A DNA stretch of 63,907 bases. Origin: Asterionella formosa. Its lineage: Eukaryota. Of this stretch, positions 7,002 to 42,500 are shown piece after piece. The stretch's first letter is position 1. Each line of letters begins with the position of its first letter. Position numbers and translations under genes: made by a program. Under the pieces are notes generated by a model, which was not told where the DNA came from, did not search any database, and saw only the letters and a program-made list of their open reading frames with translations. Location: assembly GCA_002256025.1 (NCBI GenBank), contig NKIB01013115.1:1-63907 (forward strand), in the 5' to 3' direction.

Positions 7002-8701
7002 TAGTTGGAGTACCAGGCACCTTGTACCTACAGGGGAAGCAAATCAGTGGTGAGCACCAGGTACTGCTACCATACCATACGTAGACAGGTACAAGGACCT
7101 GGAAGATAAGGTTAAACACGTTTTGTACTTGAAAAAATTTAATCTACATACCGGTATCTCGATTCTCGGACCTTCCTGGTACCTGGTACCGGTACCAGCA
7201 AGTTGCGGTAAAGATAGTGACAATCAAATATAAAAAAAGAAATATTTAGCCCCCAATCATATCTTGGAATATTCGATTCAAATGTGCTGGCCTGCTCGAA
7301 ACTGAACTACCGGTATGGTAGATTCGGCAAGCTCGTTTTACGACTTGATTTCCCATTATTTTCTTCCGTTGATTCGAAATGGTTACCGAGGTACCAGGTA
7401 CCTTGTACCCTGGTACGGTTACCCTTCCAGGTACCTGGTACAGCCAGGTAACCTATTGTAACAAGTGTACCGGTACTGGCAATTGCCATATATATATACA
7501 TAGATCATTGTGAGTACAGACTGGAATTGTTTGGAGGGGTTCCGGCAGCCTACCGGGTATGTATTATCCTGTCTACTCCGTCAGTTTTCTGGAATCGGGC
7601 ACCAGTATGCTCACTTGGCTAGGTCGCGTGGTGCACTGCTCTCGGAGTCGTCGACCGGCTACCGGTATCGAAGATATTGAATCCCTCGGCGTTTCTACAT
7701 GGGTTCGGCATCAACCATTTGTAACTGCGACAACATATTGCTTAATTGATTTTATGATACATGCTGGCCAACTCGCCAAGCCCCCGCCGACAAGACAAAA
7801 TTTCCAAAGGTTGGGATGATCACATCTACTTTCACAAACTATCCATACTTGAATATAAATAAGTTTCTGTGATCTTTGAAAAATGGGATTGCATCGGTTT
7901 GACGGACACAAAAACTTTAATTCCCGTTTGAACCCCGAGATTGACGCTGGCCATTCCCTTCGAGCAAACCATTTGTATTGTCGGTAGGCCAGCTCGCAAA
8001 GGTCGCCGTCCTAAACCCCGAGCCTACCAAGATTCATTTCCCGGCAATTCAATTTTCAGGTCCTAAGTATAAAATTTCAATTCTCTGAAAACCAATCCAA
8101 AGCAGTGTGATATATCTGTCATTGTAGAAAAATCAAACCAACTCTGTGCCGCGAAAATAAAATGTTTAGAAACGACCACGCCAGCGCTGTCGTTGTGCAT
8201 GCACCTCGATGGGTTTATTTCACACTGGGTTCCGGTTTATGTGCACGCAGCGTAACATGCAAGTGAGTTGAATCATCTTATATCTCATAATAATGAGTTT
8301 GGTCCTCTAACACCGACTCTCACCCTTGATCTAGGTATGGCCATGGTTGACCTCTTTGAAGGAATCGTAGTACTGTGAAGGCAACGGCGACTGACTTCGC
8401 AATGTGGCACGAGCAATGGTGTTTATGATGAACAGAATTCAAGCCCTTAGCGTTCTTGTATTTGGTGGCGGTACTGTGGGCCGATTCGATTTGTTGGGTC
8501 AAAGTGAAGTGTATAGTACTCTTCGTTTTAAGGTGGAGTCTCTTTGGCATCATTTGACATGCTCACTTCTCAGCATCCTGCTATCCTTACTCTACCAATG
8601 CCACATGCTACCGGTTTAATGCTCGTTCCAAGACCTAAAGCAATATGTCTCTCACACGCTTCGACTTTTCTCCTCCCCAGGCAGTAGTAGCGTTGCCTAA
8701 G

Positions 8702-9661
8702 ATGAAAATCTCAAATGCTGTGTTTCTCGTTTCGGCGATTTTGTCCCTGTGTCTGGTACACTCTGAGACTACATTGAGAATAAATGACGTTCGAGAACTG
8801 CAGGACTACACCTCCGACTCAGGTGGTATGTACGGTGGTGACGGATATGCAGATGAGGTAGCATACATATCGTCTGATTCCAAGTCTGGTTCCAAGTCTG
8901 GTTCCAAGTCTGGTTCCAAGTCTGGTTCCAAGTCTGGTTCCAAGTCTGGTTCCAAGTCTGGTTCCAAGTCTAAGGCTGGTATGCCAGAAGCTGCTCCTTA
9001 CCCATACCCCAAACCTGTTGCTGCCCCTTACCCATACCCCAAGCCAGTTGATGCTCCCTATGAAGCACCTGTTGCCGTATCAAAGGGCTCCAAGGGAAGC
9101 AAGGGCTCCAAGGGAAGCAAGGGCTCCAAGGGAAGCAAGGGCTCCAAGGGAAGCAAGGGAGAAGGATGTGATGAAGGCTCCACGGGTGGAAAGGGCAAGG
9201 GTGGAAAGGGCAAGGGTGGTTCTAAGGGAGATTCCAAGGGTGGCTCCAAGGGAGAAGGATGCCCTGAACCAGTATCACCGGTTGCACCTCCAATGAAGTA
9301 CCCTGTTGCACCTCCTGTGAAGTACCCCGTAGCACCTCCTGTCGAATACCCCGTTGAATATCCTGGTTCCAAGTCTGGTTCCAAGTCTGGTTCCAAGTCT
9401 GGTTCCAAGTCTGGTTCCAAGTCTGGTTCCAAGTCTGGTTCCAAGTCTGGTCCTGTGGCAGCTCCTATGAAGTACCCTGTCTCCTACCCTGTGGGATACC
9501 CCGTTGAATATCCTGGTTCCAAGTCTGGCTCCAAGTCTGGCTCCAAGTCTGGCTCCAAGTCTGGCTCCAAGTCTGGTCCTAATCCTGCACCAAAACCAGT
9601 AGCCTACCCAAGTTACCCAAAGCCGCAGTCCCAGCCAGTTGCGATTCCTTATCGCCAATAG
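8702..9661 (+). CDS. Secreted silaffin/cingulin-like Ser/Lys/Gly/Pro/Tyr-rich protein (gene A, 319 aa)
   Basis: Signal peptide MKISNAVFLVSAILSLCLVHS, RXL motif (VRELQ), (SKSG)n, (SKG)n and GKGKGG blocks, and [14 protein letters not shown] repeats. The start at 8702 (not 8645) was chosen by homology with the MKISN starts of genes B and C. Confidence 0.85.
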   Translation: MKISNAVFLVSAILSLCLVHSETTLRINDVRELQDYTSDSGGMYGGDGYADEVAYISSDSKSGSKSGSKSGSKSGSKSGSKSGSKSGSKSKAGMPEAAPYPYPKPVAAPYPYPKPVDAPYEAPVAVSKGSKGSKGSKGSKGSKGSKGSKGSKGEGCDEGSTGGKGKGGKGKGGSKGDSKGGSKGEGCPEPVSPVAPPMKYPVAPPVKYPVAPPVEYPVEYPGSKSGSKSGSKSGSKSGSKSGSKSGSKSGPVAAPMKYPVSYPVGYPVEYPGSKSGSKSGSKSGSKSGSKSGPNPAPKPVAYPSYPKPQSQPVAIPYRQ

Positions 9662-11003
9662 AAGCTGATGACTCTCCTGACTTGTGAGTGACGGTGTAGC
9701 CCCTTTCGCGCTGAGGTGTTGGGTATCCCTCGTTGGGTAAGGCAAAGTACCTTACTGTTGCCAACGAAATCGATATTCAGCTGTATAAGCTTCGGGACAG
9801 TGATGCGGCATGCTAGCCATTGTGTGTTTGTATAAGATGAAAAGTGTTTTGTTGTTGCCTGAAAAGGATAAGCACTTTTTAGAAGCAAGCCATGTATGTT
9901 TGTACTGTATCAACTCAGGTGTTTGTTGTTGCCTGAAAAAGGATAAACACCCATGATATTAATTTGAGCTAAATATTAAACTTTCTAGTTTTACTTTTAC
10001 TTGTTTTAAGCCCTTCTAGGAACAGGCTTGGAACTTCAGAGGGCGAATAGTTTCACCTGCAGGGATACTTTTACTTTTTTAAGCCCTTCTAGGAATAGGC
10101 TTGGAACTTCAGAGGGCGAATAGTTACACCTGCAGGGAACTGTGCGATTGTGATCGGTTTCTCTCATGGTGTAGGGTGTCTTGAAGGAAAAATAGTACAT
10201 CACATGATCAATGGACGTATTGCAAATGACGACTGCAATCATTGGAACCTTTGCTTTTGTTATAGTGAATATCCTAACATACCCCATTATAGTCCAAGGG
10301 TGTGTGCTCACCTCACCCCCTATTCTCATATATGCAAACTTGGGATCGCACTTTAGCATGATGGGAACAAAGTATTCCAAGTCCTATCTATCTCGTCAGC
10401 TCAGCCAAGGGATTTTTCAGAATCGGAACTGAAAATTGGCCCACCAAAGCGTTCGTCAATGCTTCCTCCTTCCCTCTGGTCAGTTGAGGGCTTTTGAGAA
10501 GCCAAAAAAAAACCAAAATGAAGCTACGGTATGCTGAATAACGGCGCCCGTCCAATATGACTTACTATCGAGTTCAAGGGAATATCATAAAAATGGGACA
10601 GTGACTGGAAGAAATCATTATATATACAACTTTGGACCCTTTCTAATAAAAAAAAATCATGACATTCCGATGAATGGAGGTTCATTCCCTGTCCAGCAAC
10701 AATGTCTAGTTTAACTGAATATGTAGCAATTCAACAGGGGGCATGGACCACCAAAACTTGGGTACAGGGTTTTGCATGGTTAGTTGATGATGCTTCCGAC
10801 GACGATCAGTTGACGAGACCAAAACCACGGCGAACCAGATCGGAAAACATGAGCGACAGAAGATTCCTCTCATGAACGATACCTTGCCCATTATGAAACA
10901 ACAATCTCGAGTTCTGTTTTCAACGAGACAACAGGTCAACACACTTGCGTCGTTGAAATCAACAAGGGTACTGGTAATCCCTTACCTTTTCTTTCTGCCA
11001 CTA
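9662..11003. repeat. Segmental duplication: gene A downstream region, matching gene B downstream region 14552-16404
   Basis: Collinear blocks 9662-9950/14552-14840 and 10290-11003/15650-16404. Similarity ends at ttctgccactact. Confidence 0.9.
9688..9800 (+). promoter_or_regulatory. Conserved structured 3'-UTR element of gene A
   Basis: Nested stems CTGAGG/CTTCGG, GTTGGGTATC/GATATTCAGC, TCGTTGG/CCAACGA and GTAAGG/CCTTAC. Homologues at 14577 and 36085 have pairing-preserving changes. Confidence 0.6.
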
Positions 11004-11937: not shown

Positions 11938-12895
11938 CTAGAATACTCGGTAGCTGCTAGTAGCTATGATACAAACCACTATTTATTAGCGGACGCATGC
12001 CGCCACAATATTTCCATATGATAAGTGCATGCATTATTTTCACGTGCAACATTTTGCAGATTTCATCAAAAGAGGTGGAATGGAATATAAAATGAAATGA
12101 ATCATTCATGCCCCCCCCCGCCGCTCCATGAGAGTGACGACTGCCATGGAATTGAAGAAAATTGCAACATGCGTGCATGTCGTTGATGTGGATTTTCAAA
12201 AGGCGTCGAGCAAAGGTGAGCGAACAGGAAACACGTGTGTTGCAGCCCATTCTCAAGATTCACGAAAGGAATCTTCGCTTTGAATTGCTCCAAAATTTCA
12301 AGGTCGCCAGCAGAAGAATCTGCATCTACGAGCCTTAATACAATTTTTGATGAAGGTGATACCCGCCAAAAAAAGCAATCCTAGGCCGAGCAATCTCTGC
12401 TCGCTCGCACAGTCGATACCCAATTTAATTTTGTAATTCGAGACCGGAACGAATCAATCCTTCCATCGATACACTTCTCTCTCACAATTCCGAGTCTCGA
12501 AGAAATTCAACCGACTCTCGAACTGCAAATGTAAGAAGAAAACAAAGGCTCTCTCTCCTTTCACAATGGCGCTGCGAGACAACGGAAAGAGAAGAAGTAC
12601 AGGTCCTCCTCGTCAATTGCAAATGATTCTTGAATGACACGGTCGGGCGTCGTTTCCTTTGCACTCCCCCTAATTCTCGGGGTTCCGTACCATGCGAGTA
12701 GATTCACATTATACTCCTTACGATTAGTAATTGGACAGGAAGATTCGTGTCGCTCGGTACTCGTTTCATCCACAGTACAAGCTGAAACATGACAGCACTT
12801 GCAACGCCCAATACTCACAATTTTGTTTCTTTTTTGCGCTCTCCCTTTACTAAATACGCTTCATAATATATATAACAGCCACATTTCTGTAAACA
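11938..12895. repeat. Segmental duplication: gene B upstream/promoter region, matching gene C upstream region 33348-34444
   Basis: Collinear from ctagaatactc...ttagcggacgcatgcc to the identical ...ccacatttctgtaaacaATG. Confidence 0.9.
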
Positions 12896-14551
12896 ATGAA
12901 GATTTCCAATTCTGCCTTCGTTGCGTCCGCATTGTTGACATTATGCTTGGTCACCTCTGAACGCGCACAAGTGCGAGGAAGTCGTCGCGCCTTGAGTGGC
13001 TATGCCACCGACTCTGGTACCAACAACGGCGGTAATGGTGTGTATCAGGATGGCTATGGCTCCGAGGAAGGTTCCCATGAATCTGGTGGCTCCAATGAGG
13101 GCTCCTATGAATCTGGTGGCTCTGATGTGGGTGGCTCCAAGGAGGGTGACCACAGTGGATCGTCTGGAAAGGGCAAGGGATCCAAGCAAGGCGACAACAG
13201 CATGGGTGACGACTACAGTGCGGAATCGAGTGGAAAGGGCAAGGGAGGAAAGGGAATGGGATCCAAGCAAGGCGACGACAGCGTGGGTGACGATTACAGT
13301 GCAGAATCAAGTGGAAAGGGCAAGGGAGGCAAGGGATCCAAGCAAGGCGACGACAGCATGGGAGACGACTACAGTGTCGGATCCAAGGAAGGAGACGATA
13401 GCATGGGCGACGACTACAGTGCAGAATCGAGTGGAAAGGGCAAGGGAGGAAAAGGAAATGGAGGAAAGGGTAAGGGAGGAAAGGGATCCAAGGGAGGCGA
13501 TGACGACGCAATGGGATCCAAACAAGGTGATGATAACTACCCCACTTACCCCAAGCCAGTTGCGAAACCTGTTGATTCACCTGTGATGGCTCCTGTAGGA
13601 AAGGGCAAGGGAGGAAAGGGTAAGGGAGGAAAGGGATCCAAGGGAGGCGATGACGACGCAATGGGATCCAAACAAGGTGATGATAATTACCCTACATACC
13701 CCAAGCCAGTTGCGAAACCTGTTGATTCACCTGTGATGGCTCCTGTCGAAGGTGACGGTTGTGACGAGAGTTCCGGAAAGGGCAAGGGAGGAAAGGGCAA
13801 GGGTGGAAAGGGCAAGGGATCGAAAGGAGAGGTAGACTGTCCTGACGAGCCAGCTGGCTCGCCTACCGCCCCTTACCCTTACCACAAACCTGTTCCTTCA
13901 CCCGTGATGTCGCCTGTCGAAGCTGAGTCCAAAAAAGGCTCAAAAGGTGCCAAGGGATCATCGAAGGAGGGAGAAGATTGCGAAGAGGGTTCTAAGGAAG
14001 GAAAGGGCAAGGGAGGAAAGGGCAAGGGAGGAAAGGGCAAGGGAGGAAAGGGCAAGGGAGGAAAGGGCAAGGGAGGAAAGGGCAAGGGTGGTTCTAAGGG
14101 AGATTCCAAAGGCGGCTCCAAGGGAGAAGGATGCCCAGAACCAGTATCACCGGTTGCACCTCCAATGAAGTACCCTGTGGCACCTCCAATGAAGTACCCT
14201 GTGGCACCTCCAATGAAGTACCCTGTGGCACCTCCAATGAAGCACCCTGTGGCACCTCCAATGAAGTACCCAGTGACACCTCCAATGAAGTACCCTGTTG
14301 CCGACCCAGTGGAACACCCCGTTGAATATCCTGGCTCCAAGTCTGGATCCAAGTCTGGATCCAAGTCTGGATCCAAGTCTGGCTCCAAGTCTGGCTCCAA
14401 GTCTGGTTCCAAGTCTGGTTCCAAGTCTGGTTCCAAGTCTGGTTCCAAGTCTGGTTCCAAGTCTGGTCCTAATCCTGCACCGAAACCAGTTGCCTACCCA
14501 AGTTACCCGTTGCCTCAGTCCAAGCCTGTTGCGATTCCTTACAGCCAATAA
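12896..14551 (+). CDS. Secreted silaffin/cingulin-like protein (gene B, 551 aa; chimera of C N-terminus and A C-terminus)
   Basis: Signal peptide, VRG..RRAL (RXL), acidic SMGDDYS repeats alternating with [14 protein letters not shown] repeats and (SKSG)n. Ends PVAIPYSQ like gene A. Confidence 0.88.
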
Positions 14552-14576: not shown

Positions 14577-14689
14577 GTGACGTTGTAGCCCCCTTCACTT
14601 CGAGGTGTTGGATATCCTTTGTTGGGTAAGGCAAAGTACCTTACTGTTGCCAACGAAATCGATATTCAGCTGTATAAGCTTCGGGACAG
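14577..14689 (+). promoter_or_regulatory. Conserved structured 3'-UTR element of gene B
   Basis: Same nested stems as 9688-9800, with G-U to A-U and U-G to C-G changes that keep pairing. Confidence 0.6.
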
Positions 14690-16480
14690 AGATATGGCAT
14701 GCTAGTTTGTGTGTTTGTATCAGATGAAAGTGTTTTGTTGTTTGCCTGAAAAGGATAAGCACTTTTTAAAAGCAAGCCATGTATGTTTGTACTGTATCAA
14801 CTCAGGTGTTTGTTGTTGCCTGAAAAAGGATAAGCACCATTTTATCAACTTGAGCTAAGCTTTATTTAACTCTTAGTTTAGCTGCCCTTGTTTCAGCACA
14901 GCTAGGAACAGGCTTGGAATTTCTTAGGGTGTATAGCAGAAGATTTATCTGCGGGAAACAATGAGATTATAATCTTGTTTTTCTCATGTTCACTAAGGTT
15001 TAAGGTACATGAAAGAAAAAGAGTGAGGCACATGCAGGCTACACATTTTATTAACTTGAGCTAAACTAATAATTTCTAGTTTAACTGCCCTTGTTTCAGC
15101 ACAGCTAGGAACAGGCTTGGAATTTCAGATCGAGTATAGCAGTAGATTTATCTGCAGGAAACAGTGAGATTGTAATCTGTTTCTCTCATGTTTCACTCAT
15201 GGTATAAGGTACATGAAGAAAAAACAGTGAAGCATATGCAGGCTACTCATGTGCACATTGCAAATGGCAACAGGAATCATTGGAACCTTTGCCTTGTTAT
15301 AGTGAACAGCCTAACATGCTGAATATAAGACATGACCTAGGGTTGAGAGTGCTCAATTTCATACTTTGGTTGCTTTAAACCATCATCTCGAATTTTCCGA
15401 TGCTTGTTACAATCATTCTTGTGTGATCACTTCTCATGCATATTTGGGGCTTCATCCATTTTTGATGTGGCTGCTTTCTCAAGAAAATTCTGCTCCTGAC
15501 ATCGCTTGATGGTCCCTGCTCAAACCTAAAATTTACTGCCGAAAAGTCCTCTGTGCCCCTTTATTGCCCAAAACCAATTACCTAGACACCCATAGTTCTC
15601 ATCGAAAAGCAAGATGATAGCTAGGGTGGGGATAGCCGGTATACCCCCTCTAGTCGAAGGGTGTGCTCACCTCACCCTCTACTAATGTGTATAAACTTGG
15701 GGTCGCACTTCAGCATGATTAGAACAAAGTATGAGATCAGTTTTGATTATCGACATGATTGGGCATGCAGTTTGCTAATAAGTTATTCCAAGTCCCATCT
15801 GTCTCTTCAGTTCAGCCAAGGGCTTTTTCAGAATCGGAACTGAAAATTGGCCCACCAAAGCATTTGTCAATGCTTCCTCCCTCTGGTCACTTGAGGGCTT
15901 TTGAGAAGCAACTAAAATACGAAGCTTACGGTATGCTGAATAATGCGTCGGTACAAAATGATTACTACCAAGTTCAAGGGAATATCATAAGAATGGGACA
16001 GTGACTGGAAGATATCAATATATACTGGTATACATCTTTGGACCTTGGCTAATAAAGCAAATCATGACATTCCAATGAATGGAGGTTTATTCCCAGTCCA
16101 GCAACAATGTCTAGTTTAACTGAATATCTAGCAATTCAAAAAGGGGTATGGACTACCAGAATTGGGGTACAGGGTTTTGCTTGATAAGTTGATGATGCTT
16201 CTGATGACGATCAGTTGGCAAGACCAAAACCACGGCAAACCATATCAGAAAACCAAAGCGACAGAAGATTCCTCTCAGAAACGATACCTTGCCATTATGA
16301 AACAACAATCTCGAGTTCTGATTCAATGCGACAGGTCAATACAGTTGCATAATTGAATGTCAACAAGGGTACTTGTAATCCCTAACTTTTCTTTCTGCCA
16401 CTACTTGTTGAAATTGCGTCCCGAAGTCTTATATAACTTTCTCGTATCCCTTAAGGATAAGTAAGGGACCGAAAAGGCTG

Positions 16481-32600: not shown

Positions 32601-32692
32601 AGGGGGGGGGGGGGGGGGGGGGGGAGGAGGGGGGGAGGAGGGGGGGGGGGGGGGGGGGGGAGAGGGTGTGGGGNNNNNNNNCCCCCCGCCCG

Positions 32693-32756
<64 letters not shown>

Positions 32757-32760
32757 CGGC
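32601..32760. other. Assembly gap with poly-G/poly-C artefact flanks
   Basis: N run at 32674-32681 flanked by long G and C homopolymers. Confidence 0.85.
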
Positions 32761-33496: not shown

Positions 33497-33548
33497 CGGG
33501 GGGGGGGGGGGGGGGGGGCCGGCGGGGCGGGGGGGGGGGGGGGGGGGG

Positions 33549-33580
<32 letters not shown>

Positions 33581-33655
33581 CGGGGGGGGGNNNNNNNNNN
33601 AAAATTAAAAAAAAAACACACAATAAACAACTCCCCCCCCCCCCCCCCCCCCCGC
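33497..33655. other. Assembly gap with poly-G/poly-C artefact flanks
   Basis: N run at 33591-33600. The paralogous site (~12100-12125) has only a C9 run. Confidence 0.9.
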
Positions 33656-34444
33656 TCCATGAGTAACGACTGCCATGGCATTGAAGTAAATTGCAACATG
33701 CCCTCATGTCGTTGATGTGGATTTTAGAAAGGCGTCGAGCAAAAGTGAGCGAACAGAGAACACGTGTGTTGCAGCCCATTCTCAAGATTCACGACAGGAA
33801 TCTTCGCTTTGAATTGCTCCAAAATTTCATGGCCGCCAGCAGAAGAATCTGCATCCACGGGCCTGAATACAATTTTTGATGAAGGTGATGCCCTCCAAAA
33901 AAAGAAATCAAAGGCCGAGCAGTCTCGGCTTGCTCGCACAGTCGATGCCCAATTTAATGTTATATTTCTAGACCGGAACAAATCAATCCTTCCATCGATA
34001 CACATCAATCCTTCCATCGATACACTTCGCTCTCACAATTTCGAGTCTCGAAGAAATTCAACCGACTCTCGAACTGTAAAGGTAAGAAGAAAACAAAGGC
34101 TCTCCCCCTTTCACAATGGTGCTGCGAGACAACGGAAAGGGTAGAAGCACAGGTCTCCTCGTCTTTTGCAAATGATTTTTGAATGACACGGTCGGGCGTC
34201 GTTACCTTTGTACTCCACCTGAATCTCGGGGTTCAGTAACAAGCTGGTGGATTCACAGTATAATCCTTACGATCAGTAATTGGACAGGAAGATTCGTGTC
34301 GCTCGGTACTCGTTTCATCCACAGTACAAGCTGAAACATGATAGCACTTGCAACGCCCAATACTCACAATTTTGTTTCTTATTTGCGCTCTCCCTTTACT
34401 AAATACGCTTCATAATATATATAACAGCCACATTTCTGTAAACA

Positions 34445-36049
34445 ATGAAGATTTCCAATTCTGCCTTCGTTGCGTCCGCATTGTTGACATTATGCTTGGT
34501 CACCTCTGAACGCGCACAAGTGCGAGGAAGTCGTCGCGCCTTGAGTGGCTATGCCACCGACTCTGGTACCAACAACGGCGGTAATGGTGTGTATCAGGAT
34601 GGCTATGGCTCCGAGGAAGGTTCCTATGAATCTGGTGGCTCCAATGAGGGCTCCTATGAATCTGGTGGCTCCAAGGAAGGATCTTATGAATCTGGTGGCT
34701 CCAAGGAGGGCTCCTATGAATCTGGTGGTTCTGATGTGGGCTCCTATGAATCTGGTGGCTCCAAGGAGGGTGACTACAGTGGATCGTCTGGAAAGGGCAA
34801 GGGATCCAAGCAAGGCGACGACAGCATGAGCGACGACTACAGTGCAGAATCGAGTGGAAAGGGCAAGGGAGGAAAGGGCAAGGGATCCAAGCAAGGCGAC
34901 GACAGCATGGGAGACGACTACAGTGCCGGATCCAAGGAAGGAGAAGACAGCATGGGCGACGACTACAGTGCAGAATCGAGTGGAAAGGGCAAGGGAGGAA
35001 AAGGAAAAGGAGGAAAGGGCAAGGGATCCAAGCAAGGCGACGACAGCATGGGAGACGACTACAGTGTCGGATCCAAGGAAGGAGACGATAGCATGGGCGA
35101 CGACTACAGTGCAGAATCGAGTGGAAAGGGCAAGGGAGGAAAGGGCAAGGGAGGAAAGGGATCCAAGGGAGGCGATGACGACGCATTGGGATCCAAACAA
35201 GGTGATGATAACTACCCCACTTACCCCAAGCCAGTTGCGAAACCTGTTGATTCACCTGTGATGGCTCCTGTCGAAGGTGACGGTTGTGACGAGAGTTCCA
35301 AGGAAGGAAAGGGTAAGGGAGGAAAGGGTAAGGGAGGAAAGGGCAAGGGAGGAAAGGGTAATGGAGGAAAGGGTAAGGGAGGAAAGGGCAAGGGATCGAA
35401 AGGAGAGGTAGACTGTTCTGACGAGCCAGCTGGCTCTCCTACTGCTCCTTACCCTTACCCCAAACCAGATGCTCCTTACGCTTACCCCAAACCTGTCCCT
35501 TCACCTGTGATGTCGCCTGTCGAAGCTGAGTCCAAAAAAGGCTCAAAAGGTGCCAAGGGATCATGGAAGGAGGGAGAAGATTGCGAAGAGGGTTCTAAGG
35601 AAGGAAAGGGCAAGGGAGGAAAGGGTAAGGGAGGAAAGGGTAAGGGAGGAAAGAAGGGTTCGAAGGGAGTAGGATGTCCAGAACCTGAGCCGCCAATGGC
35701 TTCTCCTATTGAGTATACCCCTCACTGGACACCTGTGGCCCCTCCAATGAAGTATCCTGTGGAAAATCCTATGAAGTATCCTGTGGAAAATCCTATGAAG
35801 TATCCTGTTGAAAAGCCCATGAAGTATCCTGTGGCGTCTCCTGTTGACTATGGCTCCAAGCCTCAGTCAAAATCTGGGCCACGGCCAAAACCTGAGCCAA
35901 AGCCTGAGCCAAAGCCCGAGCCAAAGCCCGAGCAAAAGCCTGAACCACAGCCAAAGCCTGAACCACAGCCAAAGCCTGAACCTCAACCAAAACCTGAACC
36001 TCAGCCTCAGCCTCAGCCGCAACCAGTTGCTTACCCCTACCGTCACTAG
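34445..36049 (+). CDS. Secreted silaffin/cingulin-like protein (gene C, 534 aa)
   Basis: Same signal peptide and RRAL as gene B. Contains [16 protein letters not shown] and GKGKGG repeats, PMKYPV repeats, and a distinct (PKPEPQ)n tail ending PVAYPYRH. Confidence 0.88.
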   Translation: MKISNSAFVASALLTLCLVTSERAQVRGSRRALSGYATDSGTNNGGNGVYQDGYGSEEGSYESGGSNEGSYESGGSKEGSYESGGSKEGSYESGGSDVGSYESGGSKEGDYSGSSGKGKGSKQGDDSMSDDYSAESSGKGKGGKGKGSKQGDDSMGDDYSAGSKEGEDSMGDDYSAESSGKGKGGKGKGGKGKGSKQGDDSMGDDYSVGSKEGDDSMGDDYSAESSGKGKGGKGKGGKGSKGGDDDALGSKQGDDNYPTYPKPVAKPVDSPVMAPVEGDGCDESSKEGKGKGGKGKGGKGKGGKGNGGKGKGGKGKGSKGEVDCSDEPAGSPTAPYPYPKPDAPYAYPKPVPSPVMSPVEAESKKGSKGAKGSWKEGEDCEEGSKEGKGKGGKGKGGKGKGGKKGSKGVGCPEPEPPMASPIEYTPHWTPVAPPMKYPVENPMKYPVENPMKYPVEKPMKYPVASPVDYGSKPQSKSGPRPKPEPKPEPKPEPKPEQKPEPQPKPEPQPKPEPQPKPEPQPQPQPQPVAYPYRH

Positions 36050-36084: not shown

Positions 36085-36195
36085 GTGACGGCGTAGCCCC
36101 CTTTACGCTGAGGTGTTGAGCATTCTTTGTTGGGTAAGGAAAATTTCCTTACTGTTGCCAACGATCAATACTCAGCTGTATAAGCCTCGGGTCAG
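36085..36195 (+). promoter_or_regulatory. Conserved structured 3'-UTR element of gene C
   Basis: CTGAGG/CCTCGG, GTTGAGCATT/AATACTCAGC, TTGTTGG/CCAACGA and GTAAGGAA/TTCCTTAC; includes a double compensatory C-G to U-A change relative to A and B. Confidence 0.6.
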
Positions 36196-36561
36196 TGGAA
36201 GCCATCTATGTTTTTTGTTTCGAACGCATGTGCTTGTTGTTGCCTGTAAAGGATAAGCACCTGATTTTATGTAAAATTCGAGAAAATAATATTTTAATTT
36301 GCTCATTGAGTGCATGCTGCCTACTTCGTAGCCTCTATCGTAACTGGTTGGAAAGTAGTTAAGTGAGATTGTTAGGCACATCAGAGCGAGACTAGTTTTA
36401 GTGATTGAAAAATTAAAATTGTTTTTGTTTAGGTTCCATTTAGAGCAATTGTAAGAAATAATACTGCCTCACGATGCCTTATGGGTATTCTAAATCACCA
36501 TCATCCCTATACACACATTGTTACCAAAAACCTTAAACCAGCTTTTGTGAACATGTCGTTC

Positions 36562-39500
36562 TTACTTACTGCTGCGTTCCACGTAAGACCGTGCCGCGTC
36601 CTTTACATTCTCCTGTGTTTCTTCGTTGCCATGAAGTTCTTCTATACGATACCATTTTTTGAAAAGGGCCTTCATTTGCTTGTCGCTCAATTTCGTATTT
36701 GTCAACGACGTTCGATGTAGTAACACTCGCGCTGCCGCGATTTCGCCAGCCTTCACCTCCTTGTCAGCATAGACGAACAGAAGATCCATTCGTTTCTGGT
36801 ACTTCTCCAACAAGCCATCAAAGATTGTTCTTCCCCGTTCAACGCTCCCTAACTCAAACTCGAGCTGGGCAAATTTAGACATTGTCTCAACGTGCTTGTA
36901 GTTAGGAAGGCTTGTAAGCGCTCGCTTCAAAAGCGCCTGAGCTTCTTGATGACGACCTCCGTGAAGCAAGTATTTGAGATGGGCTATCCAAACAGTTTTC
37001 TTGCCTCGAAACTTCTTGCACATCTTGTTAAACATGTTGTCGGCTTCTGTTGTGCGCTCCTCTTTCTCCAACATCTCACAGGCTCGAAGGTAGACTTGCT
37101 TTGGGTTATTATTCAGACAGGCCTTATCAATAGTTTGTTGGAAGGCACCACTGCCTCCGTATTTAAGCTCCATTGTAAGTAATGCTGTCCAAACATTGAG
37201 TTTCTCACATTCTTGTCGAAAGTCTATTCGGTCGAAAGCTCTCTGCGCAGTCCGACGAGCAGACTCCAAATCTGCCAGTGAGAGGTGAAACGCCATGAAA
37301 CGGATCCAATGCTCACTCGTGTTGGGGTTCCGAACTAAAAGTCGTTCAAAATCTGCGGGCGTTTCAGGATTCTCATCAGCCGTTCCGTCTGCAAGGGCAG
37401 TCTCTCGTCGCGAGATAACTTCCTCGTCTCGGCGACGCGCCGCGGCCTTCTTTCTGGATTGATGCCCATTGCCAACTACAGCACTTTCATCGTCTTCATC
37501 TCCGACATTATCGCCATCATCATCGGAACAGTCGTCCTTTGGTTTGTCTTGATTAATTCCCCAGTCAAACCCGACATCTGTATCCATTGCTATTTTCTTT
37601 ATGCTGTGATCGACGGAGTCATTATCGCTTGTATCGTCATTATCCGACACATCGGAAGCTTCAGCCTCATTTTCATCTGTTGATCCATCCTCGTCGACGG
37701 CCCCAGCTTTGGCGGCGAGCTTTTTCATAAAGTTTTCGTCATCAGAATCCATGTCGTTCCCGCTCTCATCACTGTGATGGATGCGTTCGGAATCGCCAGT
37801 TTCCATTTCCATGTCATGAATTGAGGCGTCATCGTCTGAGTCCTCATCACCTTCAAAGTGAGACACCTTCATTGAGAATCCAATCTTCTTTCCTTCCTGG
37901 TCCTTTTTCACCACCAAGACTTTCACAAGGTCGCCCGGATCATACAAGTCTGCTAAGTTCTTGATATACTTGTCGCTGCATTCACTCTTGTGAACAAGAC
38001 CCGATACGTCGCTGTTGTTCAAACGGACAAAGACTCCATAAGCTTCAAGTCTTGTCACAGTTGCTTTGTGCTTACTTCCCAGTTCAATATAATCAAAGCT
38101 GAGCTTGCTGTCGTTGTCAAGAAGGACAGACTCGCGCATATCAATATCAATAGTTGCGTACGGTTTGTTGTATTTTTTCCCTTTCATATCGGGAAAATGA
38201 ACTTCTTTCACTTTGCCAACCACTAGTCGACCCATTGGAAACGATGCTGCAGGATCCGGAAGGAATCCATCACTAAGGTCCTTTAAAAGGACTCGACCAC
38301 GAACTCCTCGTGAAAGGCGAACGAAACATCCTTTGCGATTTGTCTCGACAACGTAAGCATGAATTGTATCTTTCACGTCAGGAAGCTCATCATCGTCGAG
38401 ATCGCCTTCAAGGCGAGATTGACGGACACTAACTTCCAACATGGGTTGCGATGGTATGCCTGCCAGCACACGACACTGGACATATCGTCCGTGTGGATAG
38501 TCGCTCATGGTCCTGGAGTAAACACAACGTGAAGAAGTTAGGACAGAGCTGTATGTCAAAATATGAGCGGTAGTTCATGGTGACCACGGGTGGGAGATGT
38601 CGTGTCACGCCACACCGACCACTTAGTTGTTATTTGCACATTTGCGTTCAACGCACTTCACAGTTCATGGTCGACATATCATGAACCGTTCCGTCTATGC
38701 CAAACGAACGAGAAATATAACTTACCGCTCTTCTGTCTCCTCGTCATCGCCTTCCACATTCAAATCTACATGTCCGCTTTCCGATAGGTTGGGCTCGTCA
38801 GTATCAATCTTCGCATTCTCATTTGGGAAGATTTTTTTGATACGACCAAGCGGCATATTGACCCAGTCGTCAGGCTCCTCTAATTCCGTAATACAACATC
38901 GTCCAGTAAAACCACCGCGAAGTTCAAGCATTAGTGCAGGTGCTCGTTGCTGTCGAAGAGAATGATTTACGCGACCAATCAACAACTCTCCCCGTAATGG
39001 CTTTAATGGAATGTCGGAATGATTGTCGGAGAGTAGGAGAGAAAGAAAAGGGATGTCAATGTTTTCTACTGAGCTTTTCTTGACATCCTCGTCATCATCA
39101 TCAAGAAGCTGGGGCATCCTTTCTCCCCATTTCTTATTCTTTTGCCATGCTTGCTTGTTCATCACGCGACATCGAAGCTTGGATCCCACAGGAAAGTAGG
39201 CCGAAAGGTCATTCAAAACGTTAACATCAGTAGTAAGCTCTAACGATGGAATAAACGCTGTAATACCAGGGCTGACCTGAACCCACAAACCACGGAGACT
39301 CTTTGGGACGGCAGTCACAATCGCATATGTCGCCATTCCAGGGTGCAATTCTGACACCGAGGCAACGTAGTCCACCACGTCCTCATCGTTTTCGACTTTT
39401 CTTGGGCCTGCCAATTCGACGTAAGTGACCCCCTTCTGAAGGTCGACTGCTACACAAGTGAGGCCAGACAGCTTTTGGCCCTTAGTCCATTGATAGAAAG

Positions 39501-42500
39501 GATGGGTCTTGTTAATCTTTTTTTCACCCTTCGACTTCATCTTCTTTGTAGCGCTTGGTGGGGGAAGTGACTCCGAATCTGTCATGGTAACATGTAACCT
39601 TGCCCGGATCTTTCCAATTGCATATTCCTCACCAAGTAGTTTTAAACTAACTCGCATAAAGTTGATATCGGTGATCTCGGCATCGCCGACAACATCACCA
39701 GGCTTAATCACCACCGTTGTGGCCCCATTGACCTCATGTGCTGACTTTCGTGTAACTGCAGGCTTCAAAAGGATCTTCATCGGGTGCGCAGTTACGTCCA
39801 GAGCAACAATCCTACAACTCACTGTCTCGTATTTAGAGAGCTCAAGTCCCTTCTTTAATTTTGGCACCAGACCAGTAAGCCCATCCAGGAAACGGACGAA
39901 TGATCCATGTCGTGGATCAGCTTGAGCCACAAAACCTTGCACATAGGCCCCCATGAAGAGGTGAGTATCTGCAGATGGCAAAACCAGAGCATGTGGGTCG
40001 TCCTTTCTTTCAACTCCCGCTTTCGCCTGGTTTTCAGCGGTTATAATCAGTTTGGGTCGCAACGAGACAATTGGCAGCTTGCCAATGCCACTAGAGTATT
40101 CATCAGAAGACCTTTTTGGGTCAGTGAGAACCAAACCCTTGCAGTTCAGCTTCATTCCAACCTTCAAGTGCCTTTTGGAGAGCTCATCCATCCCCTCCTT
40201 AGTGTCAATATCTTCCTTCTTGTAGGTATCTAGAAGTTGGTCGAAAGGCAGCTTACAATCAATGTAAGGCAACACACTCAGCTCGTTGTCATTCTTCAAT
40301 ATATATTTGGCTTTTATGCGCACAATGGCGTGGCCGGGAACAAATTCACCGTGACGTTTCTTGTCACAGCAAGCAACAACCTCGACAACCTTCATGCATT
40401 TGGGAGGAAGGATGGCACCAGCCCGAAGGATGACTTGGCCTGGCGAACAGCTCTCGACGATACCTACTTGATCAAGTTTTGGCGCGTCGACATTCAAGTT
40501 CAAGCTGAGGTTCAAGTCCCAGTAACTAGGACACTTAGTGTGACCAAAATCTTGGATGTCTTCGTCGTCTGCGTAGTCCCGCAAGTTCTTGCCGACTCGA
40601 CGCCGGCAAGATATGACTCTACATGTAACAACGTCACCCATGTTGTAATTCTCTTGAATGTTCTCAACACCAAGTTCCGCTGCCAACGATCTAGCAGTCA
40701 CTCGACCATAAACGCGATTGTAAAAGGTTACAAACACAGCGCGATCATCGATCTTGGAAATGAATCCAGTGGCCTGTTGACCAACTTGAATATTATCGTA
40801 GGAAGTCAAGCTATCCTTGCTCTTTAACAATGATTTCTTGGCCGTCAAAGTGCACTTTCTTTGTGACGCATCAAGTTCCAAGACTCTCACGTCAATCTTG
40901 TTGCCAATTGCAAATTTCTCCTTACGAAGTTTGAGACGATAATCTGATGTCATTCCTGCCTTATCAAAGAGATGATGTGAAGGAATCAATCCTTTGACAC
41001 CCATTCCAAAGTCAACCATGATGCTTCCTCCGTCCAATTGACCACAAACAGGAACAGCTCGGTAGATTTTTCCAACTTGCAAATCTGAATGTGTCAAAAC
41101 ATGAGCATCGACAATCAATGAAGCAGTGGCACAAGTTGCCACGCCTTCCATCCAATTATTGTTGCTCAAAATTCGAAGTGTATGCGCAGTTGAAGGTGCA
41201 AAGGCTTTAGCGAATTCTGCTTCCGTGACACGGTGACCGCCGTCCATGGCCTTGGAAATGTGAACATGAGCAGTTCGAACCTTGCTGGCTTCCCGGTACT
41301 CTTCATTTTTTGCGAATGGATCCAGGAGTTTGGGTTGGTCTGTATCATATTCTTCTGGAAGAGCCAACAAGGCTCCAACACTAGGATCAACATGAATGAC
41401 AGTGGCACCCTGAATGACTGTCCCAACCGCTGGAAGTCCTGTAGGTCCACGCATGGTAAAGATATGCGATTGAAGCGAGAGTCTCACCAACTTAGTTTTG
41501 GCATCGACAGCAATAATACGAGCCGGCATGTTTCGAATTTCGTCGAATACTTTCGTCTTCCATTCCATATTGGGTAGACGACCATGAGCTCGCCAATGTG
41601 CACCAAAGTGATTCCAGTCAATCGCTCCTCGAAAGACGCCACCAAGAAAACTAACACAGAGTCCATTTCGAGCCAAACTTTCTACCTTGACGTTCACCAA
41701 AGTACCCGGATTCAAGGCAGACAAAGGTGGATGAAACGTCGACGGGAGCACCATCTTGGCCATTTTAGTGTGAGACGGGAGAATCAAGGGAACAATGGCC
41801 GTCATTGACTTTTCCGGTTTTACAACAAAATCCAACACACGTCCAGGGTGAATAAATCTCTTGTTCAGGTTTTCCTTCTCCTCACCATCATCTTCATTAA
41901 GCTGATCAAATCCTTCCAGACTGTAGTCTCCTGCAATGTCATCAAACTTTAAAAAACCCTTGCGATCATTACCTAGAGACACCAGTATACCATGATCTTC
42001 CACCGATAGCACCTGCCCACGGCACGGAGCATCCAGACTGAGGTCACCTGAATTAAAGTGATGTGGTTCTATGCTCAATTGGATGCGCTTCCGACTAGTT
42101 TGAGAAGCTCCTGAACCAACCGTTTCTGTAGCAGTCTTGACAACGTAGACGGCAAGAGTTTGTCCAACGGTCAAAGCCACAGTCAGTGGATACGTCTCAG
42201 ACTGCGCAAAAATGTCACGAGATCGAGAGATGGTCTGGGTGAGTATTATGTTTGACAGAAATTGTGAAATAACGTCTTCCGACACTACGATGACTCACAT
42301 CTTTGGGAATAATGTAACCAGTCAACAAATTAGGAAGACTAACTAGGGCAAATTTGTCATTGATTTCTCGAACAATTCCCAACAATTTCGTGCCCTTGGC
42401 CAACTTTTGAAAGCTAATGGATTCAATGAGTGCTTCTTTTTGCTTTTGATTAGGTGCAACGACTCCACCTCCACCAAGTGGAAGCATCGATGTGGCTGAC

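Follow-up and report, generated by a model that had tools for sequence, protein, structure and literature searches.

A conserved structured element downstream of the stop codons of three silaffin-like genes in the diatom Asterionella formosa

We analyzed a 63,907-nt stretch of the Asterionella formosa genome (GenBank assembly GCA_002256025.1, contig NKIB01013115.1, positions 1 to 63,907; hereafter, the window), which contains three plus-strand genes, A, B, and C, that encode Lys/Ser/Gly/Pro-rich, probably secreted repeat proteins. A conserved block of approximately 113 nt, comprising a short 5′ motif and a long hairpin, begins 26, 25, and 35 nt past the stop codons of A, B, and C, respectively, and is followed by one or two small hairpins. 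The element is found in all three genes at the same position and in the same orientation relative to the stop codon. The open reading frames (ORFs) and element copies are as follows.

8645..9661, + strand: ORF of gene A, 338 aa, stop codon at 9659-9661; the Met homologous to the start of B and C is residue 20
9688..9800, + strand: element copy A, with the 5′ conserved motif GUGACGnnGUAGCCCC at 9688-9703 and the long hairpin at 9711-9795
9711..9795, + strand: long hairpin of copy A, 30 bp in four helices, with a UGUUG bulge at 9756-9760 and a one-sided UGUAUAA loop at 9782-9788
9839..9880, + strand: small hairpin 1 of A, carrying UGUUGCC
9918..9951, + strand: small hairpin 2 of A, carrying UGUUGCC
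12896..14551, + strand: ORF of gene B, 551 aa, stop codon at 14549-14551
14577..14689, + strand: element copy B, long hairpin at 14600-14684
14727..14765, + strand: small hairpin 1 of B, with the variant UGUUUGCC
14805..14838, + strand: small hairpin 2 of B
34445..36049, + strand: ORF of gene C, 534 aa, stop codon at 36047-36049
36085..36195, + strand: element copy C, long hairpin at 36108-36190
36227..36263, + strand: the single small hairpin of C

An initial annotation of the window had placed a conserved block 25-35 nt after the three stop codons, at 9688, 14577, and 36085, and the coordinates agreed with this placement. A 35-nt core pattern allowing up to three mismatches matched three times in the window, compared with zero expected matches (0 of 100 shuffles). 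The covariance model proposed in that annotation was built from the three copies, with 113 positions and 36 pairs, and run against the whole window with filters off, and it recovered exactly A, B, and C at 124.5-132.7 bits, the next-best match reaching only 13.3 bits (E 0.26).

The minimum-energy fold of each copy, calculated separately, yielded the four nested helices, the UGUUG bulge, and the one-sided loop that had been described from the sequence. Numbered from 9688, the helices are as follows.

24-30 / 102-108: helix H1, 7 bp
31-40 / 85-94: helix H2, 10 bp
43-49 / 74-80: helix H3, 7 bp
50-55 / 63-68: helix H4, 6 bp

In the same numbering, the 5-nt UGUUG bulge occupies 69-73 and the 7-nt UGUAUAA loop 95-101. 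The extra nucleotides of the long hairpin all lie on its 3′ strand, and the helices are interrupted by the 7-nt bulge, a 2 × 4 internal loop, and the 5-nt bulge, leaving a longest continuous stack of 13 bp. Two GUUGG segments, noted previously as possible competitors for one pairing partner in A and B, are indeed present in both of these copies, and C has one.

The long hairpin (85-86 nt) taken alone was more stable than shuffled sequences in copy A (z −3.35; 1 of 200 shuffles as stable) and in copy C (z −5.65; 0 of 200). The consensus fold of the hairpin in the three-copy alignment had an energy of −30.1 kcal/mol, against −14.6 ± 2.9 kcal/mol for 1000 column shuffles, none of which was as good (z −5.3); for the whole block, the consensus z was −3.6 (1 of 1000 column shuffles). 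In folds of the whole 3′ untranslated region (3′-UTR) of A and C, helices H2-H4 and the small hairpins persisted, and H1 also persisted in C. The minimum-energy fold of the plus strand was 6-11 kcal/mol better than that of the minus strand, and 4-6 of the 30-31 predicted plus-strand pairs were G-U wobbles; both features fit a sense-strand RNA rather than a DNA palindrome.

Transcript data located the element in gene A mRNA. The stretch 9560-10010 was found in 20 of the 24 sequencing runs listed, 12 of these 20 being on record as RNA; the runs were mostly from lakes or other freshwater, and the RNA runs were mostly metatranscriptomes, several of them poly(A)-selected. Four runs were compared with the stretch at a likeness of at least 80%, namely the poly(A) RNA runs X2 and X6 and the DNA runs X14 and X9. 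In X2, a 457-nt contig with a depth of 696 spanned 9575-9999 with one differing letter and then continued into 23 A's, which are non-templated because the genome reads CTTGTT at that point. The corresponding feature is given below.

9999 (approximately), + strand: poly(A) addition site of gene A mRNA, marked by the end of the RNA contig and 23 non-templated A's

Beyond 9999, RNA depth fell to 0-7 and both DNA runs continued. The second poly(A) run, X6, covered 9576-9968 with zero differences, and the RNA contig was collinear with the genome, without joints. Given the poly(A) site near 9999, the 3′-UTR of gene A is approximately 338 nt long and holds the block and both small hairpins; the element therefore belongs to the mature polyadenylated mRNA of gene A, and the poly(A) site lies downstream of the block rather than upstream of it. 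The initial annotation had assigned the element to the 3′-UTRs of all three genes, which holds for gene A through the RNA contig reaching into the poly(A) tail; for B and C mRNAs, we infer the UTR placement from position. No B- or C-form contig was found in X2, such contigs being a record of presence and not of absence.

Just downstream of the poly(A) site of gene A, X2 also contained a low-depth (7) contig at 10067-10346, with seven differences that recur in DNA run X9; it came from another strain. This contig may stem from a distinct transcript or from an antisense one; the minus strand carries a 114-aa ORF at 10036-10380. Tandem duplications occur at 9992-10138 in A (73 nt × 2) and at 14838-15298 in B (about 203 nt × 2); in A they start immediately at or beyond the poly(A) addition site, position 9999 lying at the beginning of the first unit, and in B they start at the corresponding place.

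We compared the three loci segment by segment. Between A or B and C, identity was 57-61% in the coding tail and 42-46% in the spacer past the stop codon, 83% in the 5′ block, 84-85% in the long hairpin, 56-60% in the linker, 77-79% in the small hairpins (90-91% without gaps), and 53% in the downstream, poly(A)-proximal segment. For the same segments in the same order, identity between A and B was 86%, 69%, 83%, 94%, 82%, 97-100%, and 66%; the stretch between the small hairpins was 97% identical in these two genes, the last 69 nt of the block were identical, and neutral intergenic DNA farther downstream was 86% identical (89.5% without gaps). These segment identities mark the blocks as islands of conservation. 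The earlier statement that the block was kept between A and C in spite of diverged coding tails and spacers agrees with these values, at 84-85% in the hairpin compared with 42-61% in the flanks.

The genes differ in which parts they share. B and C match over 1034 nt at 91.7% identity (12111-13122 and 33642-34671), a match that takes in the 5′ part of the coding region and, upstream of it, about 785 nt of non-coding DNA. The 3′ coding repeats common to B and C are 79-81% identical, and their tails consist of different repeats, gene C having a B-like 5′ part and a C-terminal tail of the repeat PEPKPEPQ. For the upstream region of A, no similarity to B or C was listed, and A shares its 3′ end with B. 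Judged by these comparisons, the genes are mosaic and the UTR blocks are the part common to all three; the family was probably shaped by gene conversion.

We then counted substitutions on a three-taxon star tree. The long hairpin contained 14 substitutions, 10 of them at paired positions, and all 10 were transitions, eight of which kept the pair through a wobble. The pair C40-G85 became U-A in C by two compensated substitutions, and U37-A88 became a C-A mismatch in C, the one pair broken. G36-U89 occurred in three states (GU, AU, and GC), and the other changes were G35-U90 to A-U, G28-U104 to G-C, and U25-G107 to C-G. All of the stem pair changes listed in the initial annotation, including the C-A mismatch, were present in the alignment. 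Compared with the paired positions, unpaired positions of the block had 5 transitions and 6 transversions (Fisher p 0.012), and neutral flanks had 60 transitions and 64 transversions (Fisher p 0.0015). The same number of random substitutions broke 6.6-7.3 pairs on average, compared with the one observed; in simulations at a transition share of 0.5, P was 0.0013 when substitutions were placed at random positions and 0.0001 when the same number was confined to paired positions. In the alignment of the five small hairpins, 98.2% of cells were paired; one pair varied as A-U/G-C and one as U-G/U-A/C-G, and 39 of 500 shuffles reached their covariation score. These counts support the view that substitutions have kept pairing more than neutral change would.

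The small conserved hairpins downstream of the block, two in A, two in B, and one in C, contain GUUGUUGCCUG(A)AAAGGAUAAGCAC. The motif UGUUG occurs 5-6 times per UTR, compared with 0.5-0.7 times in shuffles (P ≤ 0.0005). Its extended form UGUUGCC sits in the bulge of the long hairpin and in the small hairpins, apart from the variant in the first small hairpin of B, and 7 of the 13 plus-strand occurrences of UGUUGCC in the window lie within the three UTRs.

We interpret these data, with moderate confidence, as a selectively maintained, family-specific structured 3′-UTR element that acts as a multivalent docking platform for an RNA-binding protein. The hairpin of approximately 85 nt, with its four stacked helices and extra nucleotides on the 3′ strand, would be bent and would expose on one of its faces two invariant single-stranded motifs, UGUUG(CC) and UGUAUAA; the heptamer UGUUGCC would be presented again by the small downstream hairpins, thereby allowing multivalent docking. 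A sequence-specific RNA-binding protein would dock there and set the stability or translation of the three mRNAs jointly, as a post-transcriptional regulon. We infer the protein binding, the regulatory outcome, and the link to the cell wall alike.

Several observations weigh against this proposal. The evidence base consists of three related copies in one freshwater diatom genome, with no cross-species copy found, and the evidence for transcription through the element covers gene A. The structure was derived from the same sequences on which it was tested; the single-sequence z scores of the full 113 nt were weak, at only −1.2 (A) and −1.5 (B), and when the whole UTR of A was folded, H1 gave way to alternative pairs. 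Invariance of all 12 bases in the bulge and loop has a chance of about 0.1 at such divergence and, taken by itself, is not significant. When all substitutions were forced to be transitions, P was only 0.09 and 0.05 in the two simulations. The C40-G85 change is the sole clean double change, and in the pair-shuffle control for covariation, which is powerless with three sequences, 124 of 500 shuffles reached the observed score. The initial annotation had called the structure covarying; because there is a single clean double change and the three-sequence control has no power, this term is too strong, and what stands is substitution that preserves pairs. Gene conversion acts in the family, B and C being 92% identical in their 5′ parts, and could also yield islands of similarity that have no function; comparing B with C, identity in the element (84%) is below that in the non-coding DNA upstream (92%).

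The last of these points belong to the explanation that competes most directly with a docking platform, namely a neutral relic in which recent duplicates were patchily homogenized by gene conversion and the hairpin is accidental and functionless. The mosaic structure of the family fits such a history, with the 5′ parts of B and C at 92%, the shared 3′ repeats at 79-81%, and the last 80 nt at about 57% identity; the element, at 84-85%, is no better conserved than the upstream DNA of B and C, and the small number of copies, the lack of cross-species support, and the non-significant covariation control are all compatible with it. A relic does not readily account for two conserved blocks that are separated by a weakly conserved linker and bounded on either side by an abrupt drop to 42-61%, for substitutions that avoid breaking pairs at the transition:transversion ratio of the flanks (P 0.0001-0.0013), or for the consensus fold (z −5.3) and strand-specific wobble pairs. 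We consider a neutral relic rather doubtful.

The stability of the hairpin also raises the question of a substrate for a nuclease of the RNase III/Dicer class, in which cutting of the hairpin would destabilize the mRNA or release small RNAs acting on the paralogues. The hairpin is long and stable, with 30 bp, and the mRNA that carries it is highly represented, which would suit this role. A microRNA precursor has a near-perfect duplex of approximately 21 nt and no large bulges; the 5-nt and 7-nt bulges limit continuous stacking in the element to 13 bp, making it a poor shape for such a precursor. In addition, the intact poly(A)+ contig crosses the hairpin at high depth, and processing by a nuclease appears quite unlikely.

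The UTRs were also examined for UGUA, which as an upstream element enhances 3′ processing in animals and yeast. The tetramer occurs six times each in the UTRs of A and B, compared with 2.3 times in shuffled sequences (P about 0.02), and only three times in the UTR of C, where it is not enriched (P 0.24). These counts in A and B, together with the poly(A) site at 9999, raise the possibility that the role of the conserved blocks, above all of the UGUA cluster at 9893-9909, is to promote termination or cleavage and polyadenylation, with no part in mRNA fate. Against this, 200-310 nt separate the long hairpin from the downstream cleavage site, the helices are preserved and not the motifs alone, and C has few UGUA; a 3′-end formation signal is very unlikely. 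The Pumilio 8-mer UGUA-N-A-[U/A]-A had no match in the three UTRs.

The cluster itself, three UGUA motifs (CAUGUAUGUUUGUACUGUAUCA) between the two small hairpins, lies at 9893-9909 in A and 14780-14796 in B. Its identity between A and B is 97%, C lacks it, and in A it is located about 90-106 nt upstream of the poly(A) site.

The spread of the element was examined in the DNA runs X14 and X9, which at a likeness of at least 80% contained element contigs of the A, B, and C forms only. The B-form contig had 27 differences over 9578-9761, and the C-form contig had 16 differences and two gaps over 9688-9802; the unmatched ends of C-form contigs carried the flanking sequence of C itself. Depths in X9 were 100, 119.5, and 109.6, about single-copy each, and 240 in the stretch common to A and B. 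Because only these three copies were present in the window and the two DNA runs, the data argue for three copies per genome and not for a dispersed repeat, the alternative that the initial annotation had raised against itself. A metagenome scan with the pattern TGTTGCCAAC-N(6-24)-AGCTGTATAAG found no relatives; the two loci it returned were rejected as unrelated, bacterial-looking coding sequence that matched by chance. A scan of a viral collection with the inner-hairpin pattern gave zero matches. A mobile-element fragment (a miniature inverted-repeat element or similar) that landed by chance in the UTR of the gene family, as its inverted-repeat architecture and the tandem repeats just downstream might suggest, is extremely improbable given three copies in 63.9 kb at about single-copy depth, the constant place and orientation relative to the stop codon, arm imperfections that are G-U wobbles and not random mismatches, and the lack of a match in the viral collection.

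The initial annotation did not recognize the element as SECIS, TPP, or hammerhead, and our searches matched it to no known RNA family. Rfam 15 at gathering thresholds had zero matches in the whole window, and at E values up to 10 the A and B regions gave matches at chance level only and the C region none. The sub-threshold matches in A and B were to algC (14-22 bits, with 33.8 needed) and to C/D-box snoRNAs (10.5-12 bits, with 35-45 needed). The bacterial algC motif aligned with the second small hairpins (9913-9946 and 14800-14833) at 22 bits (E 0.03-0.05), below the threshold of 33.8, and we took it as a chance resemblance of a short hairpin. The C/D-box assignment, based on UGAUGA and CUGA in the spacer and block of A, was weak (E about 2) and not conserved in B, and was rejected. 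A tRNA-like origin was rejected as well, since ARAGORN found zero genes in the window.

Other identities were excluded on structural or transcript grounds. SECIS elements resemble the diatom element in being structured hairpins in the 3′-UTR of eukaryotic mRNAs; the three ORFs contain no in-frame UGA, and no SECIS model matched at E values up to 10, in agreement with the earlier exclusion of this family. A coding exon was rejected because 2 nt are deleted within the block of C and the RNA contig follows the genome without joints. A stimulator of stop-codon readthrough was also rejected; the base of the hairpin lies 48-58 nt past the stop codon, and translation past the stop in A would meet another stop after about 10 codons.

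Comparison with well-described mRNA elements gave only partial likenesses. The histone mRNA 3′ stem-loop (RF00032) is likewise a family-wide hairpin at a short fixed distance past the stop codon. It consists of a 6-bp stem and a 4-nt loop, replaces the poly(A) tail, and, bound by SLBP, serves as a tag for a coordinated, cell-cycle-linked mRNA fate. Unlike it, the diatom element is an 85-nt multi-helix hairpin in a polyadenylated mRNA and had no Rfam match. A histone-type 3′ end was rejected because gene A mRNA is polyadenylated, the RNA contig running approximately 200 nt past the hairpin and ending in the 23 non-templated A's. Zipcodes such as yeast ASH1 E3 and Drosophila K10 TLS are hairpins in 3′-UTRs or coding regions whose bulged or looped bases are read by proteins and which often occur several per mRNA; by description, they resemble the diatom element in that a helical scaffold presents the bulged and looped bases. 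Pumilio response elements and the GU-rich elements recognized by CELF share U/G-rich repeats (UGUUG, and UGUUUGUUGUUG in the small hairpins), UGUA cores, and a location in 3′-UTRs. CELF and PUF elements act single-stranded, whereas the motifs of the diatom element are embedded in conserved helices.

We next considered the host proteins. The ORF translations of A, B, and C show Lys/Ser/Gly/Pro-rich repeats and a hydrophobic, signal-peptide-like N-terminal leader, and the proteins also have Ser/Gly-rich and Tyr/Pro-rich repeats. An RxL motif follows the leader, at residue 50 in protein A and residue 31 in B and C; KxxK motifs number 9 (A), 21 (B), and 23 (C), and Lys content is 13.6-14.7%. Silaffins and cingulins are described in a review as having a leader followed by RxL, clusters of KxxK, and Ser/Gly-rich and Tyr/Pro-rich repeats (PMC4557024). 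The proteins of A, B, and C likewise show a signal-peptide-like leader followed by RxL and KxxK lysine clusters, and they are alike in both kinds of repeat; the likeness is one of composition and motifs, and no sequence homologue was found.

Pfam gave only sub-threshold matches for the three host proteins, and a protein search with query P0002 gave one spurious match among 8000 scored candidates. A full HMMER search returned 107 matches at E ≤ 0.001, four at ≤ 1e-10 and none at ≤ 1e-30, nearly all of them to the proline-rich repeat at residues ~410-490, and these were discounted as low-complexity matching. No sequence homologue of the host proteins was detected by either the candidate scoring or the full HMMER search. 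The term silaffin-like, as used in the initial annotation, is therefore a description and not a family assignment; composition, the signal-peptide-like N-terminus, RxL, and the KxxK clusters bear it out as such.

To our knowledge, very little is known about post-transcriptional mRNA control in diatoms. A structured, family-specific hairpin on abundant silaffin/cingulin-like mRNAs would provide a handle with which to isolate the binding protein and a means to ask whether diatoms time the synthesis of cell-wall proteins after transcription; it could also be built into expression cassettes as a transferable part for diatom biotechnology. The hairpin and its UGUUGCC satellites might further constitute a regulon tag through which a dedicated protein makes mRNAs for cell-wall (biosilica-associated) proteins respond, in stability or translation, to silicon supply or the cell cycle; we regard this specific role as unlikely. 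If true, diatoms would gain their first described structured cis-regulatory element in an mRNA. The case, at three paralogues in one genome, is still thin. In the portion of the literature covered, we found no structured 3′-UTR element for diatom cell-wall genes, and one report notes only that duplicated PtSIT2 genes share identical UTR stretches (PMC2758714). As far as these sources extend, the element itself is undescribed, and its kind, a family-specific 3′-UTR stem-loop, is familiar.

The eukaryotic neighbor genes in the window encode a protein with Rrp5-like S1/HAT repeats, a SacI-domain protein, and an M32 carboxypeptidase. For the carboxypeptidase, all of the named relatives among the 120 best listed were from diatoms, including Striatella (64%), Asterionellopsis (63%), Cylindrotheca (60%), and Thalassiosira. 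The Rrp5-like gene (36562-42285, minus strand; S1 and HAT/TPR repeats) converges on gene C and is divided into two ORFs, probably by an intron; the last of these ends at 36562, approximately 300 nt from the conserved small hairpin of gene C. On the other side of gene C, approximately 1-2 kb upstream, lie the homopolymer tracts G59, C74, and G93 (32602-32660, 32682-32757, and 33498-33590), which may be genuine G/C sequence or have arisen in assembly.

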